Source of the DNA: Escherichia coli
GTDB lineage: Bacteria > Pseudomonadota > Gammaproteobacteria > Enterobacterales > Enterobacteriaceae
Length of the DNA: 64,000 bases
NCBI RefSeq assembly: GCF_048403405.1
Contig: NZ_CP183129.1
Strand: one strand, 5' to 3'
Below are positions 8,706-55,079 of the stretch, piece by piece (position 1 is the first letter of the stretch; every line of letters begins with the position of its first letter). The notes beneath the pieces were generated by a model. It was not told the origin of the DNA. It did no database searches and worked only from the letters and a program-made list of their open reading frames with translations. The translations under genes were made by a program, and so were the position numbers.

Positions 8706-10136
8706 GTGCCGCAACGCATTTTAGTTCTCGGTGCCAGTGGCTACATTGGTCAGCATCTGGTGCGAACACTCAGCCAGCAGGGGCATCAGATCCTGGCGGC
8801 GGCACGTCATGTCGACAGGCTTGCAAAGCTGCAACTGGCAAATGTCAGTTGCCATAAAGTCGATCTCAGCTGGCCGGATAACCTTCCGGCCCTGTTGCAG
8901 GATATCGATACGGTCTATTTTCTGGTGCACAGCATGGGCGAAGGCGGCGATTTTATCGCTCAGGAGCGCCAGGTGGCTCTCAACGTCCGCGATGCGCTAC
9001 GTGAAGTCCCAGTTAAGCAATTAATCTTTCTCAGTTCGTTGCAGGCCCCGCCACATGAGCAGTCGGACCATCTGCGTGCCCGTCAGGCTACGGCGGACAT
9101 TCTTCGTGAAGCGAATGTACCAGTGACCGAACTGCGGGCCGGAATTATCGTTGGCGCAGGTTCAGCGGCGTTCGAAGTCATGCGCGATATGGTCTACAAC
9201 CTGCCAGTGTTAACGCCGCCACGCTGGGTACGTTCACGCACCACGCCCATCGCGCTGGAAAACTTGCTGCACTATCTGGTGGCGCTGTTAGATCATCCGG
9301 CCAGCGAACATCGCATCTTCGAAGCCGCCGGACCAGAAGTGCTCAGTTATCAGCAACAGTTTGAACATTTTATGGCGGTGAGCGGTAAGCGCCGCTGGTT
9401 GATCCCCATCCCCTTTCCGACCCGCTGGATTTCGGTGTGGTTTCTCAATGTGATTACTTCCGTACCGCCCACCACCGCCAAAGCGTTGATTCAGGGGCTG
9501 AAACATGATCTGCTGGCGGATGACACCGCGCTACGTGCACTCATCCCACAACGGCTGATCGCTTTCGATGACGCGGTACGTCGCACCCTGAAAGAGGAAG
9601 AAAAGCTGGTCAACTCCAGCGACTGGGGCTACGACGCTCAGGCCTTTGCCCGCTGGCGACCGGAGTACGGTTATTTCGCCAAACAGGCGGGGTTTACCGT
9701 TAAAACGTCCGCCAGCCTTGCGGCTTTATGGCAGGTGGTGAATCAAATCGGCGGTAAAGAGCGTTATTTCTTTGGCAATATTTTGTGGCAAACCCGGGCG
9801 TTGATGGACCGCGCGATCGGTCATAAGCTGGCGAAAGGCCGCCCGATGCGTGAATATTTGCAGACCGGCGATGCGGTGGATAGCTGGAAAGTGATTGTCG
9901 TTGAACCGGAAAAACAACTTACGCTGTTATTTGGCATGAAAGCGCCGGGGCTGGGACGACTGTGTTTTACCCTGGAAGATAAAGGCGACTATCGTACTAT
10001 CGATGTTCGCGCATTCTGGCATCCGCACGGTATGCCGGGGCTGTTTTACTGGTTATTGATGATCCCCGCGCATCTGTTTATTTTTCGCGGAATGGCAAAA
10101 CGAATCGCCAGACTGGCAGAAAAAAGCACAGATTAA
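8706..10136 (+). CDS. ybjT: putative NAD(P)-binding Rossmann-fold oxidoreductase YbjT
   Basis: From GTG 8706 ([19 protein letters not shown]..., GxxGxxG) with AAGGAGGGA RBS; 476 aa; track ORF 8631 extends upstream into ltaE. Confidence 0.85.
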
Positions 10137-42770: not shown

Positions 42771-43157
42771 ATGGGTGTGTATAAGGCAAGACGATTCAGC
42801 CAAAGCACGAAAAAACTTGGTATTCACGATAAAGTTCTCATGGCTGCCGCTGAAGAAGTGATGCAGGGCATATGGGAGGCTGATTTAGGTAGCGGTGTCA
42901 TCAAAAAACGTTTACCCCTCCAACAAGGAAAGAGTGGTGGAGCCAGAACAATTATCTTTTTTAAATCAGCAAATCATGTGTTTTTTTATGATGGTTGGTC
43001 CAAGAGTGGTCTAAGCAGTAAAGGAACCAAAGAAATCGAAGATGATGAACTGGCGGCCTACAAAAAAATGGCAAATGCATTTCTGGCCTTTAGCAATAAG
43101 CAAATAGAGGATTTGATCGAAACTGGCTTTTTGATTGAGGTGAAAAATGAGCGATAA
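42771..43157 (+). CDS. putative type II toxin, RelE/ParE superfamily (HigB-like; toxin-first operon)
   Basis: 128-aa basic protein MGVYKARRFSQSTKKLGIHDKVL...GKSGGARTIIFF...; AAGGA RBS; overlaps downstream HTH gene by 11 nt. Confidence 0.65.
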   Translation: MGVYKARRFSQSTKKLGIHDKVLMAAAEEVMQGIWEADLGSGVIKKRLPLQQGKSGGARTIIFFKSANHVFFYDGWSKSGLSSKGTKEIEDDELAAYKKMANAFLAFSNKQIEDLIETGFLIEVKNER

Positions 43158-43476
43158 ATTACAAATGATGCTGGAAGATGCAAAGGAACTGAATGCACTG
43201 GGCCTGATGTCTGATAGTGAAGTTGATGCCATTGCCGTCATGGTCAAAGCTCGTGAAGTCAGCGCCCGTATAGCCAAAGTCAAATCAATGACGGGTGAAG
43301 AGATCAAAGCCATCCGCACCCGATACGGCATGTCACAATCCGTGCTGGCACATACAATGGGAATGTCAAAAGAAAGTGTCTCGAAATGGGAACGTAATGA
43401 AATAAAACCGAGCGGCCCGGCATTACGTATTTTGAATACATTGGCAATAAAAGGGCCGGAAGTTTTTGCAAAGTAA
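43147..43476 (+). CDS. putative antitoxin with C-terminal XRE-family HTH (HigA-like)
   Basis: 109-aa protein; C-terminal GMSQSVLAHTMGMSKESVSKWERNEIKPSGPALRILNTL is a typical Cro/C1-type HTH; translationally coupled to the upstream toxin-like gene. Confidence 0.65.
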   Translation: MSDKLQMMLEDAKELNALGLMSDSEVDAIAVMVKAREVSARIAKVKSMTGEEIKAIRTRYGMSQSVLAHTMGMSKESVSKWERNEIKPSGPALRILNTLAIKGPEVFAK

Positions 43477-44881: not shown

Positions 44882-47230
44882 CTACTCTTTTACTAATTTT
44901 CCACTTTTATCCCAGGCGGAGAACGGCATGGGTTTCTGGTACAGATACCCCTGAGCCTGAACACATCCTAATTTGATTAATTCGCGCGCAACGTCTTCGC
45001 TCTCTACGCCTTCCGCAATCACCGGGATCCGGTTATAGCGTGCCAGATCGAAAATAATGCGCACAATTTTTCCCGCAGTACCGAAAATATCGCCGGTAAA
45101 TTGTGAGTCCACCTTTATGCTATCTGGATTAATTTCATAAAAACGTTTCAGGTTTGACAAACCGGTGCCAAAGTCATCAATCGATATCCGTACCCCTTGT
45201 TTACGCAGTTGTTCAATATTGAGATAAAAATGTTCATTAATTCGCTCGATCACGGTTTCAGTGATCTCAACACAGAGGCTGTTCGCCTTCAGGCCATTTT
45301 CTTTCATGATGGTGGTAAAACGCTCATGAAAGTGTGGTTCGTTTAACTGCCAGGGCGAAACATTAATATGCAGTAAGAAATCATCCTTCAGCGACGCACG
45401 CTGACTAAAATGTCTGAATTCACCCATTGCCGTTTTAATAATCTGATAACCCAGCTCATTGATAAACCCGATATCTTCAGCAATGGTAATGAACTTTAGC
45501 GGTGAAATGATCCCCCGCTCCGCAGACACCCAACGGCACAACGCCTCCGCGCCCAGAATGGCGCGGGTGTTAATATCAACGATCGGTTGATAGACGAGGA
45601 ATAGTTCGCCAATTTCCATTGCATGGCGAATATTACGCGCAATCCAGATATTCTCTTCTATTTCGTTGAGTTTCGCGTCATCACAGAAAATAAACTCGGA
45701 GAACATATGGTCACGGATACTGGAAATCGCCAGTTTCAGTTTTTCTGCGTAACTCCAGGCGTTTTCTCCCTGCAAAGGTTCACAAATGGCAGACTTATGG
45801 ATGCGCAGATTGCGGTAGCCAAAGCTGCTGTCAAAATCGTTTATCATCGCTATTTTACGGGTAAATGTCTGTACATTTTCCCGGCACAGAAGTAAATAGA
45901 GATCGGCATTGAATGTCACGATATCGCAGCATTGCGCATATTTCTCGGCAATTCGCTGACACAATTTCCTGACGATTTTATTGCGTTCATCAACACCAAA
46001 CACCGCTTCCACGGCTTCCAGACCACACAGTTTGATGATCCCCACAGCCAGATACTGATTATTGTTGGACTCAATAATCGCCATATTTTTAATAAAACCG
46101 CTTTCCTGATCGTAAGAGATCAGTGAGAGCAATTTATTTGACCGTTCAATTTCGGCATCTTTCATTTCCGCGATCGAATTTTTGATGCTGATAATCTCTT
46201 TCGCATCGCCTTCGCGAATTTTCAGAGCCTCGATCTGATCCGTTGAGTCGGGCAAAAACGCCAGCGTATTAACCAGCTCGGTCATTTCAGAAAATTGCCG
46301 ACGGAACACACGAGTGGTCATTAAATAAACCACCAGCAATACGATAATAATGAAAGCAAACGGCAGATAAAAAAGTTTATCTGATGCGTTCAATAAATTA
46401 CCGCCAGGATAATAAAAATAGATTTCGAATAATGCGTTGTTTGGCACCGCTGATGTTTTTTCGATATATTCAGTATCGACAGAATCAATAATATTATAAT
46501 TACCTTCGCTATTATAAATAATCAGTTTTTCACGCGCGAGTTGATTCTTGGCAATGATCTCATGGCCTTGTTTCAAAAATAGAACTTCATCATTAGCGCT
46601 GATTTGATCAAGATACTCGTTCAGATATCGCCAGTTTAAATCGACATGTATTTTATCCACCGCTAACAAATCGTGATCTTTGCCGTTGATGCGTAGCGTA
46701 AAAGAGATACATTTTTTACCCGGACGATCAAAGCAATTGTAGGCCGGATTCCAGCTGTTGTTAGAGTCATCTGAAGCCACCGACCATGGTCGTTTCGATG
46801 GATTAAAATCGGCAAAAATAACCCGCCCTGACTCGTCGACAAGCGGTCCATTTACTTCTTCCTGATGATAAACAACGATTTTATCATTCGCCCTCCGCGA
46901 AAAGAGATAATATTTATTATCATCAAGTACCAGTCCCACCGAGTCTAAAAATGGCATCATTTCCATTTTAAGGATCACAGCGCGTTGAATCTCCTCTGTA
47001 TTTTTTAATAAATACAGTGAGTCCTTTAATGTCAGGGCCGAACGTTCAATATCTTTAAAGAAATAGCCAACGTTTTTCTGAATAAGTTCAAAGCGGCTAT
47101 CGGCACGTTTTACCGCGCGTTCCGATACCAGTTGATAGTTAATGATGAAAAAAAGGCCAATAAATGACAGTGCTGCCAATAAAAATAAAATTATCAGCCT
47201 TATCTTTATCTTTTCGTATAAACTCAGCAT
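44882..47230 (-). CDS. pdeI: c-di-GMP phosphodiesterase PdeI (YliE)
   Basis: From ATG 47230 ([21 protein letters not shown]...), 782 aa, C-terminal EAL domain (EALCRW); track ORF extends 26 codons upstream. Confidence 0.9.
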
Positions 47231-47407: not shown

Positions 47408-48319
47408 CTATCCTTTAATTTTCGGATCCAGCGCATCGCGTAAACCATCACCCAACAAATTGAACGCCAGTACAGTCAGAAAAATAGCCAGGGCCGGAAA
47501 AATAGCGACATGCGGCGCGATAACCATATCCGCTCGTGCCTCATTGAGCATTGCTCCCCACTCTGGTGTCGGCGGCTGCGCACCGAGGCCGAGAAATGAC
47601 AGGCTGGCGGCAGAGATAATCGAGGTACCGATGCGCATGGTGAAAAACACCACGATAGACGAGACGGTCCCAGGCAAGATATGACGCAATAAAATGGTCA
47701 TATCGCTGGCACCAATACTGCGTGCTGACTCAATAAAGGTTTGCTGTTTCAACACCAGCGTGTTGCCGCGCACCAGTCGGGCAAACGCGGGGATGGAAAA
47801 AATGGCGACTGCAATAATCACGTTAGCAATGCCGCTTCCCAACACCGCAACAACAGCGATCGCCAGTAAAATACCCGGGAAGGCAAACAGCACATCGCAA
47901 ATGCGCATGATCAGCCGATCCCACCAGCCTTCATAATATCCAGCCAACAAGCCCAGCAACGTCCCGATCGCCGCACCGATAAACACGGCAAACACGCCCG
48001 CCGCCAGCGAGATTTGTGCACCAACCAGGACACGGCTGAAAATGTCACGCCCCAGTGAATCAACGCCAAACCAGTGCTGCAAAGAAGGTCCGTTATTCAG
48101 ATTGTCATAATCGAAATAATTTTCGGCGTCATAGGGAGCGATCCAGCGTGCAAAAATGGCCACTACAATCAATAAAATAACGAATAATGCGGCGGTCATC
48201 GCCATATGCTGACGGCGAAATCGTCGCCAGAATTCATGCCACGGTGTACGTACCTGGTCAGGTTTGACCAGTGGCATGGCGTTTAACGCCGCCTGACGTC
48301 GCCAGTTAAATAGTCGCAT
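47408..48319 (-). CDS. gsiD: glutathione ABC transporter permease GsiD
   Basis: 303-aa translation [22 protein letters not shown]... Confidence 0.95.
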
Positions 48320-48321
48320 CC

Positions 48322-49242
48322 TTACTTGTACCTGATAGCCGGGTTAATGGCGGCGTAAAGCACATCCACCACTAAGTTGATAAGAATAAATTCCAGCGAG
48401 AAAAGCAGAATTTCCGCCTGAATCACCGGGTAATCGCGCATTTCTACGGAGTCAACGAGTAAGCGTCCAAGTCCGGGCCAGTTGAAAACTTTCTCCACCA
48501 CGATGGAACCACCGAGCAAAAAGCCAAACTGTAAGCCCATCATGGTCACTACCGGGATCATCGCGTTGCGTAGCCCGTGTTTGAGGACAACCCAGGTTTC
48601 GCTCACCCCTTTCGCCCTCGCGGTACGCATATAATCTTCGCTTAAAACATCGACAAACGACGCGCGGGTAAAGCGCGCCATCACGGCTGCCACTGCCGCG
48701 CCGAGCGTCAGGGAGGGTAAAATGTAGTGCTGCCAACTGTCTGCTCCCACGGTAGGCAGCCAGCCCAGTTCAACGGAGAATACCTGAATTAAAAGCATCC
48801 CCAGCGCAAATGCCGGAAACGAGATCCCCGACACCGCAATGGTCATACTCAATCGATCCGGCCAACGATTACGCCAGACGGCGGCGATAATTCCCGCCGC
48901 CATACCAAATATCACCGCCCAGACCATACTGGTTATGGTCAGCCACAGCGTTGGCATAAAGCGGCTGGCAATCTCATCGGCAACCGGACGACGCGACACC
49001 ATCGACAGGCCAAAATCCCCCTGCACAGCATTGCTGATATAGTGCCAGAACTGGTGATACAGCGGCTGATCCAACCCCAGCTGCTGACGCACCAGTTCTA
49101 TAACCTGCGCATCAGCTTCGGGCCCGGCAATCAATCGCGCCGGATCGCCGGGCAGCATATGCACAAATAAAAACACCAGCACCGAGACGATAAACAGCGT
49201 CGGAATCAACCCCAGCAAGCGTTTGATAACGTAATTAAGCAT
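48322..49242 (-). CDS. gsiC: glutathione ABC transporter permease GsiC
   Basis: 306-aa translation [22 protein letters not shown]... Confidence 0.95.
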
Positions 49243-49259: not shown

Positions 49260-50798
49260 TTATTGCAAATCCGCGTCTTCAAAGCTGAAGCCGGTGTCTG
49301 GCATGATCCAAAAACCGGTCAGGTTTTTACTGTGTGCCGACACCAGTTTTTCTACCACCAGCGGGATCCACGGCGACTCTTGCCAGATGATATCCTGCGC
49401 CGCCTTATATAAACGGGTCTTTTCTGCCGGATCATTAGTTTTCAGTGCCTGAGCCAGGAAATCATCCACCTGTTTATTGCTGTAAAACGCGGTATTAAAC
49501 AGCGTCGGTGGCCAGTTCTGCGAGGCAAACAGCGGCGATAGTGCCCAGTCCGCTTCGCCGGTTGAAGCCGACCAGCCAGTGTAGAACATCCGCACGCCGC
49601 TCTCTTTTTGCCCTTTACCTTCAACTTCTGCCGCCCGCTGTCCGGCATCCATCGCAGTCACCTGGGCTTTAATCCCGACCTGCGCTAACTGCTGCTGGGT
49701 AAATTGCAGCACTTTCTGCGCGGTGCTGTGGTTATGTGACGACCACAGCGTGGTACTGAAACCGTTGGGATATCCCGCCTCTTTCAGTAATTCGCGCGCT
49801 TTCACTGGATCGTAAGGCCACGGTTTATAACTTTGCGCGTAGGCGATACTCGGCGGTACCACACCAGTAGCTGGCGTTGCATAGCCCGCGAAGGCTACTT
49901 TCACCAGCGCCGGGCGGTTAATGGCGTAATTCAGCGCCTCACGGACCTTCGGGTTATCGAACGGCTTTTGCGTCACGTTCATACTGATATAACGCTGCAT
50001 AATTGACGGACTGGCCATCAACTCGATATTTTTGTTTTTCTCCAGCAGTGCGGCCTGCTCGTAGGGAATGGGGAAAGCAAACTGCGCTTCACCGGTTTGC
50101 AGCATTGCCGCGCGGGTATTGTTATCCGCCACCGGACGCCAGGTTATGCTGTCCAGTTTGGGCAATCCTGGCTGCCAGTAACCCGCGAATTTTTTCACCT
50201 TCACAAAATCGGTCTGATTCCAGGTATCCAGTTCATACGGCCCGGTTCCCACCGGATGAAAACCAATCTCCTTGCCATATTTTTCCAGCGCTGCCGGCGA
50301 AATCATCGCGGTCGCCGGATGGGCAAGAATATTAATAAACGCTGAGAACGGCTGTTTGAGGGTAATCTTTACCGTTGTTGGATCGATCGCTTCCGTTTTG
50401 GCAATATTCTTATACAGGTTGTAGCGTTTAAGATGATTCGCCGGATCGCTGGCCCGGTCCAGATTCGCTTTTACCGCCGCTGCGTTGAAGTCGGTGCCAT
50501 CCTGGAATTTAATGCCTTCCCGCAATTTCACGGTGTAAGTAAGGCCGTCATCGGAAACGGTATAACTCTCCGCCAGCACGTTTTTCAGTTTCATCTCTTT
50601 ATCGAGACCGAACAGCCCCTGGTAAAACGATTTCGCTACGGCCTGAGATAACGTGTCATTTGCGTCATACGGATCGAGCGTGGTGAAGTTCGATCCTACC
50701 GCCACCACCACATCTTTGGCAGCGAATGCACAAGATGCCATCAACGCTGTCGCAATGCCCAGCGCCACTAACCCACTACGGTGTACAGCTCTTGCCAT
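49260..50798 (-). CDS. gsiB: glutathione-binding periplasmic protein GsiB
   Basis: From ATG 50798 ([26 protein letters not shown]...), 512 aa; the 601-aa track ORF is an upstream over-extension. Confidence 0.93.
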
Positions 50799-50817: not shown

Positions 50818-52688
50818 TTATCTACGCATGAATGCGTATTCTGATTGTGGTTGTGCGACGTAATGCCCCGGCCCGACGCATTGCAACGAGACGGCTGCCA
50901 CCTCTTCGCCACGCAGATGAATATTGCTGGGAAGATCGTCCGACAGCAGTACACGCTGCGGTCGTTGTCGGGACGGTTCAGCGACCGGAACTGCCGCCAG
51001 TAATTTACGCGTATAAGGATGCTGCGGGTTTTCGAAGACCGCGCGCCGTGGACCAATTTCAACAATTTGTCCGAGATACATCACCGCCACACGATGACTA
51101 ATCCGCTCTACCACGGCCATATCGTGGGAGATAAACAGATACGCAATGCCGAAATCACGCTGGAGATCGAGCAACAAGTTGATAATCTGCCCGCGAATAG
51201 AAACATCCAGCGCCGAGACGGCTTCGTCGGCAATGATCACTTTTGGATTCAATGCCAACGCGCGAGCAATGCAGATGCGCTGGCGCTGACCGCCGGAAAA
51301 CTCATGCGGGTAACGCCAGGCATGTTCAGGTAACAGGCCCACGCGCTCCAGCAACCACGCAACGCGTGCAGCCGCTTCTTTACCTGGCAATAAACCGTGT
51401 ACGCGCAGCGGTTCGATAATCGAATCACCGATGGTCTGACGTGGGTCCAGCGAAGCGTAAGGGTCCTGAAAAATAAACTGAATATCCCGGCGCAATGCCT
51501 GAAGTTTACCGGATGACAAGGTATCGATTCGCTGACCGTTAAAGATAATTTCGCCGCCCTGCGATTCGACCAGGCGCAGCAACGCCCGCCCGGTAGTGGA
51601 TTTACCGCTGCCAGACTCGCCCACCAGCGATAGCGTTTCGCCAGGCCAGAGATCAAAACTGACTTTCTCAACGGCATGCACTTCCCGCGTTACGCGATTC
51701 AACAAACCGCTGCGCAAAGGGAAACGGGTGACCAGATTACGCACCCGTAAAACAGGTTCGCCATCCACCACCGTTTTCTGCTCGATGGGTGGTTCCTGTT
51801 TGGCTGGATGTTCAAGCGATATCAATGGGAAACGTCGGGGATAATCTAACCCTTTCATCGCACCAAGTTGCGGAACAGCAGCTAACAGCGCACGGGTGTA
51901 AGGATGTTGCGGTGCATGAAAAATCTGTTCGACGCTACCCGTTTCCACCGCCTCGCCCTGATACATCACCAGTACCCGATCGGCAATCTCTGCCACCACG
52001 CCCATATCGTGAGTGATAAAGATAACGCCCATCGACATCTCTTTTTGCAATACTTTGATTAATTGCAGGATCTGCGCCTGAATAGTGACATCCAGCGCGG
52101 TGGTTGGCTCATCGGCAATCAGCACCGCCGGGCGGCATGACAGTGCCATCGCAATCATCACTCGCTGGCGCATCCCGCCAGAGAGTTGATGCGGATAACG
52201 TGAAAGAATGGTTTGTGCCTCCGGAATGCGTACCTGATCCAGCATCCGCTTCGCCTCGACCATTGCTTCTTCACGACTGGCGTTTTGATGCAGACGAATT
52301 GATTCGGCAATCTGTTCACCCACAGTAAATACCGGGTTCAGCGATGTCATCGGCTCCTGAAATATCATCGCCATATCCGCACCGCGCACATGGCGCATTT
52401 GTGCAGCGCTCTGCTCGCTAAGTTCAATCACTTCGCGACTGCGCCGCCGCAACAGCATTTGATCGCACTGCACTAAACCGCCCGCCTGTTCCAACAGGCG
52501 CATCAATGCCAGCGCAGTCACTGACTTACCGGAGCCAGATTCGCCAACAATTGCCAGCGTCTCACCGCGTTGCAGGCTAAAGAGAGATTGCGGACCGCAG
52601 CTATTTTCTGCTGGTCCTGCATAAAGGCAATATTCAGATTTTCAACCGCCAGCACATCACCGGCATCAAGTTCATCACTGTGTGGCAA
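50818..52688 (-). pseudogene. gsiA: glutathione ABC transporter ATPase GsiA, disrupted by a 1-nt frameshift near the 5' end
   Basis: N-terminal 92-aa ORF (52518-52796) reads ...[36 protein letters not shown] then goes out of frame; the remainder (50818-52521) resumes at ...[14 protein letters not shown]; restoring one A in the A3 run at 52579-52581 (plus strand) gives the continuous [24 protein letters not shown] Walker A. Confidence 0.8.
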
Positions 52689-53640
52689 CGGTGTCCCCTT
52701 TTTCACGGTAGATACCGGTGGTTGGCGTATCGCCTGCGTAGCCCCAGGCGCGATACATTCCTTCGGTGTTAAACGGTAGCGCGATATTACCTTCATGGTC
52801 GATAGCGATTAAGCCACCGCTACCGCCAAGCGCAGGGAGTTTTTCCATTACTACCCGCTCGCAGGCTTCCGCGAGACTTAATCCGCCGTAATCCATTAAC
52901 GCGGCGATGTCATATGCCGCCAGCGCGCGGATGAAGACTTCGCCCGTACCGGTACATGAAACCGCCACACTGGCGTTATTGGCGTAGCATCCGGCCCCCA
53001 CTAAGGGACTATCGCCAACTCGTCCGGGTAATTTATTGGTCATTCCGCCTGTGGACGTGGCTGCCGCCAGATTGCCGTCTAAATCCAACGCCACGGCCCC
53101 CACGGTGCCCATTTTCTGTTTTTCATCCAGTGGCGCACCGCTATGGTCGAGGACTGTTGCCCCTTCCTCACGCGCTGCCATTAGTTGTTCATAACGCAAA
53201 GGCGTGGAGAAAATCTCCGGTGAGACGCGCTCCATGCCATGAGCAAACGCAAAATTTTCTGCCCCTTCGCCAATCATCATCACATGCGGGCTTTGCTCCA
53301 TCACCAGCCGGGCGGCAAGAACCGGATTACGCAGATGACTAACGCCCGCCACCGCACCGGCTTTCAGGGTGTTACCATCCATCACACAGGCGTCCAGTTC
53401 ATGGGTTTCATCACGCGTAAAGACAGCGCCAATTCCGGCGTTAAACAGTGGACACTCTTCCAGCAGACGCACCGCTTCCGTCACCACATCCAGCGCACTT
53501 TCGCCCGCTACCAGCATTTTCTGCCCGGTTTCAACAATGGCAGACAACGCCTCGATGTAGCGTAATTCCTGTTGCAGACTCATCTGCGCGCGGCTAATTG
53601 CACCTGCGCCACCATGAATTGCAATGACTGCTTTGCCCAT
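52675..53640 (-). CDS. iaaA: isoaspartyl dipeptidase / L-asparaginase IaaA (Ntn hydrolase)
   Basis: 321-aa translation [23 protein letters not shown]... Confidence 0.95.
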
Positions 53641-53843: not shown

Positions 53844-55079
53844 ATGGAATTTACCACCGGATTGATGTCGCTCGACACCGCGCTTAATGAGATGCTTTCT
53901 CGCGTTACCCCACTGACCGCCCAGGAAACGCTGCCACTGGTTCAGTGTTTTGGTCGTATTCTGGCGAGCGATGTCGTTTCGCCGCTTGATGTCCCGGGGT
54001 TTGATAACTCCGCTATGGACGGCTACGCGGTGCGTTTAGCCGATATTGCCTCCGGGCAACCGCTGCCCGTTGCCGGTAAATCCTTTGCCGGTCAGCCGTA
54101 CCATGGTGAATGGCCTGCGGGTACCTGCATCCGCATTATGACTGGCGCACCAGTACCCGAAGGCTGCGAAGCGGTGGTGATGCAGGAACAGACCGAACAG
54201 ACTGACGCTGGCGTGCGTTTTACTGCTGAAGTGCGTAGCGGGCAAAATATTCGCCGTCGCGGTGAAGATATCTCTGCGGGTGCGGTTGTTTTCCCGGCGG
54301 GAACTCGCCTGACTACCGCAGAGCTGCCAGTAATTGCTTCACTGGGGATTGCCGAAGTTCCGGTGATTCGTAAAGTGCGTGTAGCGCTGTTTTCTACCGG
54401 TGATGAACTCCAGTTGCCAGGCCAGCCGCTGGGCGACGGCCAAATCTACGATACCAACCGTCTCGCCGTACACCTGATGTTAGAACAGCTGGGATGCGAG
54501 GTAATCAACTTAGGGATTATCCGCGACGATCCCCATGCCCTGCGCGCCGCATTTATTGAAGCCGATAGCCAGGCGGATGTGGTGATCAGTTCCGGCGGTG
54601 TTTCAGTGGGTGAAGCGGATTACACCAAAACCATTCTTGAAGAGCTGGGGGAGATCGCCTTCTGGAAGCTGGCGATTAAACCAGGTAAACCGTTCGCGTT
54701 CGGAAAACTTTCTAATAGCTGGTTCTGCGGCCTGCCGGGCAACCCGGTTTCAGCAACGCTGACCTTCTATCAACTGGTACAGCCTTTGCTGGCAAAACTA
54801 AGCGGCAATACCGCCAGTGGCCTGCCCGCGCGCCAGCGTGTACGCACAGCGTCCCGCCTGAAAAAAACGCCAGGACGCCTTGATTTCCAGCGCGGCGTGC
54901 TGCAACGCAACGCCGATGGCGAACTGGAAGTGACGACCACCGGGCATCAGGGTTCACATATATTTAGCTCCTTTAGCCTCGGCAACTGCTTTATCGTACT
55001 GGAGCGCGAGCGCGGCAATGTGGACGTGGGCGAATGGGTGGAAGTAGAACCGTTTAACGCATTGTTCGGAGGCCTGTAA
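53844..55079 (+). CDS. moeA: molybdopterin molybdenumtransferase MoeA
   Basis: 411-aa translation [24 protein letters not shown]... Confidence 0.96.

Follow-up and report, generated by a model that had tools for sequence, protein, structure and literature searches.

The 64,000-nucleotide stretch of Escherichia coli DNA analysed here (the window) carries the genes iaaA-gsiA-gsiB-gsiC-gsiD on its minus strand, in the order that is also found in K-12 and in strain MS 69-1, so that gsiA retains its usual operon context. GsiA (YliA, b0829) is the ATP-binding subunit of the E. coli GsiABCD glutathione ABC importer and its only ATPase. The upstream operon gene, iaaA (52675–53640), is intact and, at its 3′ end, shares 14 nt with the start of gsiA. 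Downstream of gsiA, gsiB (49260–50798), gsiC (48322–49242) and gsiD (47408–48319) are also intact, as had been claimed for gsiBCD in an earlier reading of the sequence alone (the sequence-only reading), and all four of these proteins are identical to those of MS 69-1.

The gsiA reading frame spans positions 50818–52688 on the minus strand, from a TTG start codon (52688–52686) to a TAA stop codon (50820–50818), and is interrupted at a run of three T on the coding strand (AAA on the plus strand) at 52579–52581. The relatives carry TTTT at this site, which has the context AATCTCTC-TTT-AGCCTGCAAC; the coding strand around the lesion reads CGC AAT CTC TCT TTA GCC TGC, with the TTT at 52581–52579. 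The lesion is a one-base length change inside a mononucleotide run (T4 to T3), the form that a homopolymer error takes. Translation from the TTG start shows that the native frame ends after 36 residues (..AAVRNLS) and is followed by 20 out-of-frame residues and a premature TGA at 52520–52518, giving an N-terminal fragment of 56 codons (52518–52688, minus strand). The first Walker A motif, the P-loop GESGSGKS of nucleotide-binding domain 1 (NBD1), was placed at 52522–52545 on the minus strand by comparison with the K-12 and MS 69-1 translations. Its codons are out of frame with the gsiA start and lie 5′ of all possible restart codons. The downstream open reading frame (50818–52521, minus strand) encodes 567 amino acids from a GTG at 52521, which overlaps the premature TGA as GTGA, or 561 amino acids from an ATG at 52503, and contains in frame the second Walker A motif (GESGSGKS) of NBD2 at 51598–51621 on the minus strand. 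No single uninterrupted frame of the window gsiA therefore includes both Walker A motifs. These results bear out the sequence-only reading, which had described gsiA as split across two frames by one missing base and had mapped the break to an A3 run at 52579–52581; all of its coordinates and peptides proved correct.

The 567-aa open reading frame contains two ABC_tran and two oligo_HPY domains, with the second ABC_tran match at residues 285–435, and no Pfam domain was found in the 56-codon N-terminal fragment. The exact peptide of that fragment is absent from a collection of 15 billion proteins, and the 561-aa product is present there (entry P0001, with NCBI and Logan sources). Adding one T to the window gsiA yields the gsiA of MS 69-1, a protein of 623 aa identical to WP_001445743.1. 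The claim that one extra A on the plus strand restores the frame and the Walker A motif holds in this comparison, because that base is the sole difference from MS 69-1 in the region. The restored protein matches the NCBIfam equivalog NF007613 end to end (model positions 1–623) with 1378.7 bits against a cut-off of 1077, and the 567-aa open reading frame of the window matches model positions 58–623 with 1268.5 bits. By its sequence, the window gene is a plain GsiA orthologue. The restored protein resembles the known GsiA in having two fused NBDs, each consisting of an ABC_tran plus an oligo_HPY domain, whereas the gene as it stands in the window differs from the known GsiA in that its frame is broken after residue 36 and its first P-loop is out of frame.

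A 401-base query served to place the allele among relatives. Of the 5,426 complete E. coli genomes, 5,425 matched it, and strain Ch1 aside the ten top matches extend over 402 bases, one more than the query; the comparison with other isolates proposed in the sequence-only reading thus returned the T4 allele in all ten of the nearest complete genomes. GN02461, MS 69-1 and TUM1226 differ from the window over 25 kb essentially by the gsiA base alone. Over the full 64 kb, the window and MS 69-1 are separated by four single-nucleotide polymorphisms (SNPs; positions 9846, 10122, 22172 and 41208) and one indel, the gsiA T. TUM1226 has the MS 69-1 allele at all five window-private positions, as does GN02461 at the two that it covers.

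The private SNPs comprise YbjT V381M, YbjT Q473K (a C>A change that makes an A7 run), PotH G317E and one change in the bssR-rimO intergenic region. The three coding changes are all non-synonymous, and PotH G317E falls in the final potH codon, 1 nt before the potI start. The YbjT and PotH variants of the window occur once each in the 15-billion-protein collection, and each (XPL99274.1 and XPL99286.1) lies on one NCBI chromosome; these accessions are very recent, which suggests a long-read-era assembly. On look-up in other backgrounds, single-SNP intermediates and a K-12 PotH G317E were absent. A K-12-type YbjT Q473K is present in three draft assemblies, on contigs of up to 213 kb, and looks like ordinary variation.

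The distribution of the T3 allele was examined with 41-mers centred on the run, for which megablast seeds only if T3 is present. With the window flanks, one of the 5,426 complete genomes matched (Ch1), and with the K-12 flanks none of the 5,426 did, with the caveat that a T3 genome carrying another nearby SNP could escape this test; the complete K-12 RefSeq genomes are all without T3. Metagenome scans gave no match to the T3 pattern and only six to the T4 pattern, a small denominator. The T3 allele is private among the close relatives and is inherited by no lineage, as would be expected of an artefact.

Ch1, the single complete genome with T3, is 98.5–99% identical to the window in the gsiA region and belongs to a different lineage. 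Comparison of Ch1 with its close relative TUM1886 revealed three single-base indels in 45 kb, namely pdeI C5 to C4, a T inserted in gsiB and gsiA T4 to T3, each of which frameshifts its gene, and all three genes are labelled ‘frameshifted’ by the NCBI pipeline. Substitutions cluster beside two of the three indels, those in gsiB and gsiA. Judged from these features, the Ch1 assembly looks error-rich.

The same deletion was then sought in raw-run assemblies (Logan) and long-contig GenBank assemblies. Counting these and Ch1, T4 to T3 occurs in four backgrounds that are unrelated to one another (window-like, 15.TR.026_OXA-like, Ch1 and K-12), mostly in assemblies that bear further single-base homopolymer deletions at recurring sites in moeA, gsiB and pdeI. 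Logan contigs that encode the 561-aa product were retrieved from seven runs (ERR10498726, ERR10749407, SRR18681637, SRR15989534, SRR30949551, SRR30949584 and SRR15989589), one contig from each, and all seven carry T3. As these contigs were retrieved by the truncated product, a lesion in 5′ gsiA was selected for, and the informative features are its position and the errors that accompany it. Two of the seven are of the window type (0–1 mismatch). The other five are of another type, identical to that of many complete genomes (for example, 15.TR.026_OXA), which carry T4. The contigs differ from their nearest complete genomes almost only by one to three single-base homopolymer deletions per 3–8 kb. 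Recurring companions are moeA T7 to T6, moeA C5 to C4 and gsiB G4 to G3 within CCAGGGG, the last of which lies in CCAGG, a Dcm site. If the gsiA site is left out of the count, the contigs together have 7 further deletions over some 36 kb, and comparison of MS 69-1, TUM1226 and the window with one another reveals no deletion in 44–64 kb. The combinations of deletions vary among runs of one background, which is the behaviour of noise and not of descent. Two pairs of runs have close run numbers (SRR15989534/SRR15989589 and SRR30949551/SRR30949584), and each pair supplies one T3 contig per background; the presence of T3 in both backgrounds within each pair fits a shared method and not a shared ancestry.

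At least 24 contigs carry the 561-aa product in its K-12 version, and those in which the lesion site is not covered begin inside gsiA. T4 to T3 is the 5′ gsiA lesion in the K-12 sequences SRR28534369, SRR28534534, ERR15602647 and GenBank GCA_047157725.1. The K-12-like ERR15609830 instead has A4 to A3, and the K-12-like ERR3330179 has AA to A 11 nt downstream. A nonsense change is present in ENA ERZ2271712, and the bases at the site are N-masked in GenBank GCA_977028675.1. With 9 single-base gaps in 21.7 kb, GCA_047157725.1 is, on the face of its sequence, plainly error-rich. The contig from SRR28534369 differs from MG1655 at exactly two places in the 21.7 kb, gsiA T4 to T3 and pdeI G5 to G4 (K-12 position 874,439), and the shortened pdeI run is the one that is also shortened in Ch1. 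The two identical deletions that the unrelated Ch1 and SRR28534369 have in common point to a systematic, context-specific base-calling error; a biological origin of the pair is very hard to explain. In the window lineage the pdeI run is interrupted and reads GGGAG (45758–45781), so that this second trouble spot cannot show there, and over those 21.7 kb the error pattern of the window matches that of the cleaner K-12 data set, SRR28534369. Recurrence of this kind, in unrelated data sets that bear errors, is what an artefact would produce.

Taken together, a private allele and an identical deletion that recurs in unrelated, error-laden data favour an artefact, and the recurrence marks the gsiA T run as a preferred error site. 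We consider the missing T to be most likely a residual homopolymer consensus error of a long-read assembly. The sequence-only reading had left the choice between genuine inactivation and a sequencing error; the private allele and its recurrence in four backgrounds favour the error side, and the inactivation side fares less well. Under the artefact reading, a long-read assembly, probably nanopore, would have kept a residual consensus error at the gsiA T run, and the pyrimidine-rich stretch CTCTCTTTTAG(C/T)CTGCAAC would constitute a reproducible base-calling trouble spot. The true sequence of the strain would be TTTT, with iaaA-gsiABCD intact and encoding an ordinary ABC importer. The platform is probably nanopore, judging from the error profile, which consists of homopolymer deletions only, and the source assembly of the window appears by inference to share the error mode of the T3 data sets. 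Homopolymer-length and systematic errors are known to persist in bacterial assemblies built from long reads only (Polypolish, 10.1101/2021.10.14.464465; Homopolish, PMC8011154). The window lesion resembles the errors described there in being a one-base homopolymer deletion that makes a false pseudogene, but differs from them in that the run has only 4 bases and is the sole such change in 64 kb.

Several observations count against an artefact. The other 920 runs of at least 4 bases in the window, 303 of them of at least 5 and 17 of at least 7, agree with MS 69-1, and the window is intact at the sites of the recurring companion deletions, moeA C5 (54644–54656), moeA T7 (54857–54871) and gsiB CCAGGGG (50613–50624). 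A run of 4 bases is also short for a classical homopolymer error. In addition, the four private SNPs define a branch of its own, real or apparent, on which a genuine indel could lie. An error model in which long homopolymers fail first was ruled out, since all window runs of at least 5 bases are correct; the artefact would instead reflect a site-specific trouble spot. A methylation motif was likewise rejected as the cause, as inspection of the 41-mer revealed no GATC, CCWGG or EcoKI motif.

A real, strain-private slippage from T4 to T3 with loss of gsiA function is the alternative that fares best, and we regard it as unlikely. It would entail truncation after 36 native residues, with restarts at GTG 52521 or ATG 52503 that lack the NBD1 P-loop and leave GsiABCD inactive. 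The window sequence as given encodes exactly such a truncation, the deletion is the sole indel in 64 kb while longer runs are intact, and the four other private changes in the same genome are compatible with a branch of its own. Yet nothing would direct a real private indel to this run among the 921 of at least 4 bases in the window, and the run that was struck is the very one that is shortened in error-laden data of four unrelated backgrounds. No relative carries T3. Contigs of 50 kb–1 Mb have the size expected for short-read drafts; none in this range carries the window-type truncated product, and the K-12-type product occurs on only two contig blocks of this size, of which the one examined is N-masked at the site. 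Were the source of the window found to be Illumina-polished, the deletion would probably be real.

Also in favour of a real loss, Gsi is dispensable in the laboratory: Opp imports reduced glutathione (GSH) and Gsi is needed only for glutathione disulfide (GSSG; PMC11719327). Furthermore, a K-12 range-expansion experiment gave rise to gsiA loss-of-function mutations in more than one line, and these were associated with larger colonies (bioRxiv 10.1101/355404); this preprint was the only report found in a literature search for gsiA and frameshift. The lesion is like the homopolymer-slippage pseudogenes of E. coli and Shigella in that it frameshifts a dispensable transporter ATPase early in the gene, and unlike them in that no lineage inherits it and the site is artefact-prone.

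A real deletion would leave a 56-residue peptide and, at best, a restart product lacking residues 1–56 or 1–62. In Salmonella, gsiA is required for Gsi-mediated uptake (PMC5485302), and in E. coli Gsi is essential for GSSG import while Opp carries most GSH import (PMC11719327). With the sole ATPase deprived of its NBD1 P-loop and Opp carrying GSH, Gsi-dependent GSSG import would probably be abolished and GSH import retained. Polarity arising from the untranslated stretch might also reduce expression of gsiBCD. Such a loss of a dispensable importer, private to the strain, would be ordinary, a minor metabolic note.

The T run of CTCTCTTTTAG could instead be a genuine recurrent mutational hotspot, with gsiA really inactivated in the window strain, Ch1, the K-12 stocks and the 15.TR.026_OXA-like background, a proposal that we find improbable. 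If it were true, loss of Gsi-dependent glutathione disulfide import could be advantageous in some conditions, an idea that draws on the link between gsiA loss of function and larger colonies in the K-12 range expansion.

Rescue of gsiA by programmed −1 frameshifting, by transcriptional slippage at the T run or by a phase-variable switch can be dismissed almost entirely. In its favour are only the short T run preceded by CT repeats and the GTGA overlap at the premature stop, which is of a type that can permit termination-reinitiation. The sequence C TCT TTA does not fit the X XXY YYZ pattern of a slippery heptamer, and a run of 3–4 bases is far below the known lengths for phase variation or transcriptional slippage. 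The NBD1 Walker A motif would be lost even with reinitiation. The shifted arrangement is conserved in no lineage (5,425 complete genomes are in one frame or without T3). Lacking a heptamer, a long tract and conservation, the site was rejected as a programmed frameshift or phase-variable locus.

The lesion belongs to a known class of assembly error or else is an ordinary private pseudogene. If it is an artefact, its use lies in quality control: the run at K-12 867,624–867,627 would yield false ‘frameshifted gsiA’ pseudogenes, at least in Ch1 and GCA_047157725.1 and probably in the window genome, and surveys of pan-genomes or pseudogenes should then not score T3 at this run as a gene loss. A nanopore read pile-up would be the wrong check of the gsiA run, as it would probably repeat the deletion.

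The window differs from K-12 and from some of its relatives in several other features. Between ybjQ and ybjP is a pseudogene of a pentapeptide-repeat protein (13170–14408, minus strand; annotated as ‘incomplete, missing C-terminus’) that is common to MS 69-1 and TUM1226; in K-12 only a short intergenic gap separates the two genes. In GN02461 a P2-like prophage adjoins rcdA (21807–44001 of its L015 locus, corresponding to about 31,260 of the window, between rcdA and ybjL); the window, MS 69-1 and TUM1226 are without it. Between rimO and dgcI, a RelE/ParE-family toxin is paired with a helix-turn-helix antitoxin (42771–43476, plus strand); this pair is common to MS 69-1, Ch1 and TUM1886, and K-12 is without it at that position. 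At the end of the window (62390–64000), ybiU is adjoined by a LacI-family regulator (62390–63550, minus strand) and, from 63788 on the plus strand, by the beginning of an MFS transporter. A GH31 glycoside hydrolase comes next in Ch1 and TUM1886, whereas in K-12 ybiT follows ybiU directly, a difference that marks the locus as a small accessory sugar-utilisation island.
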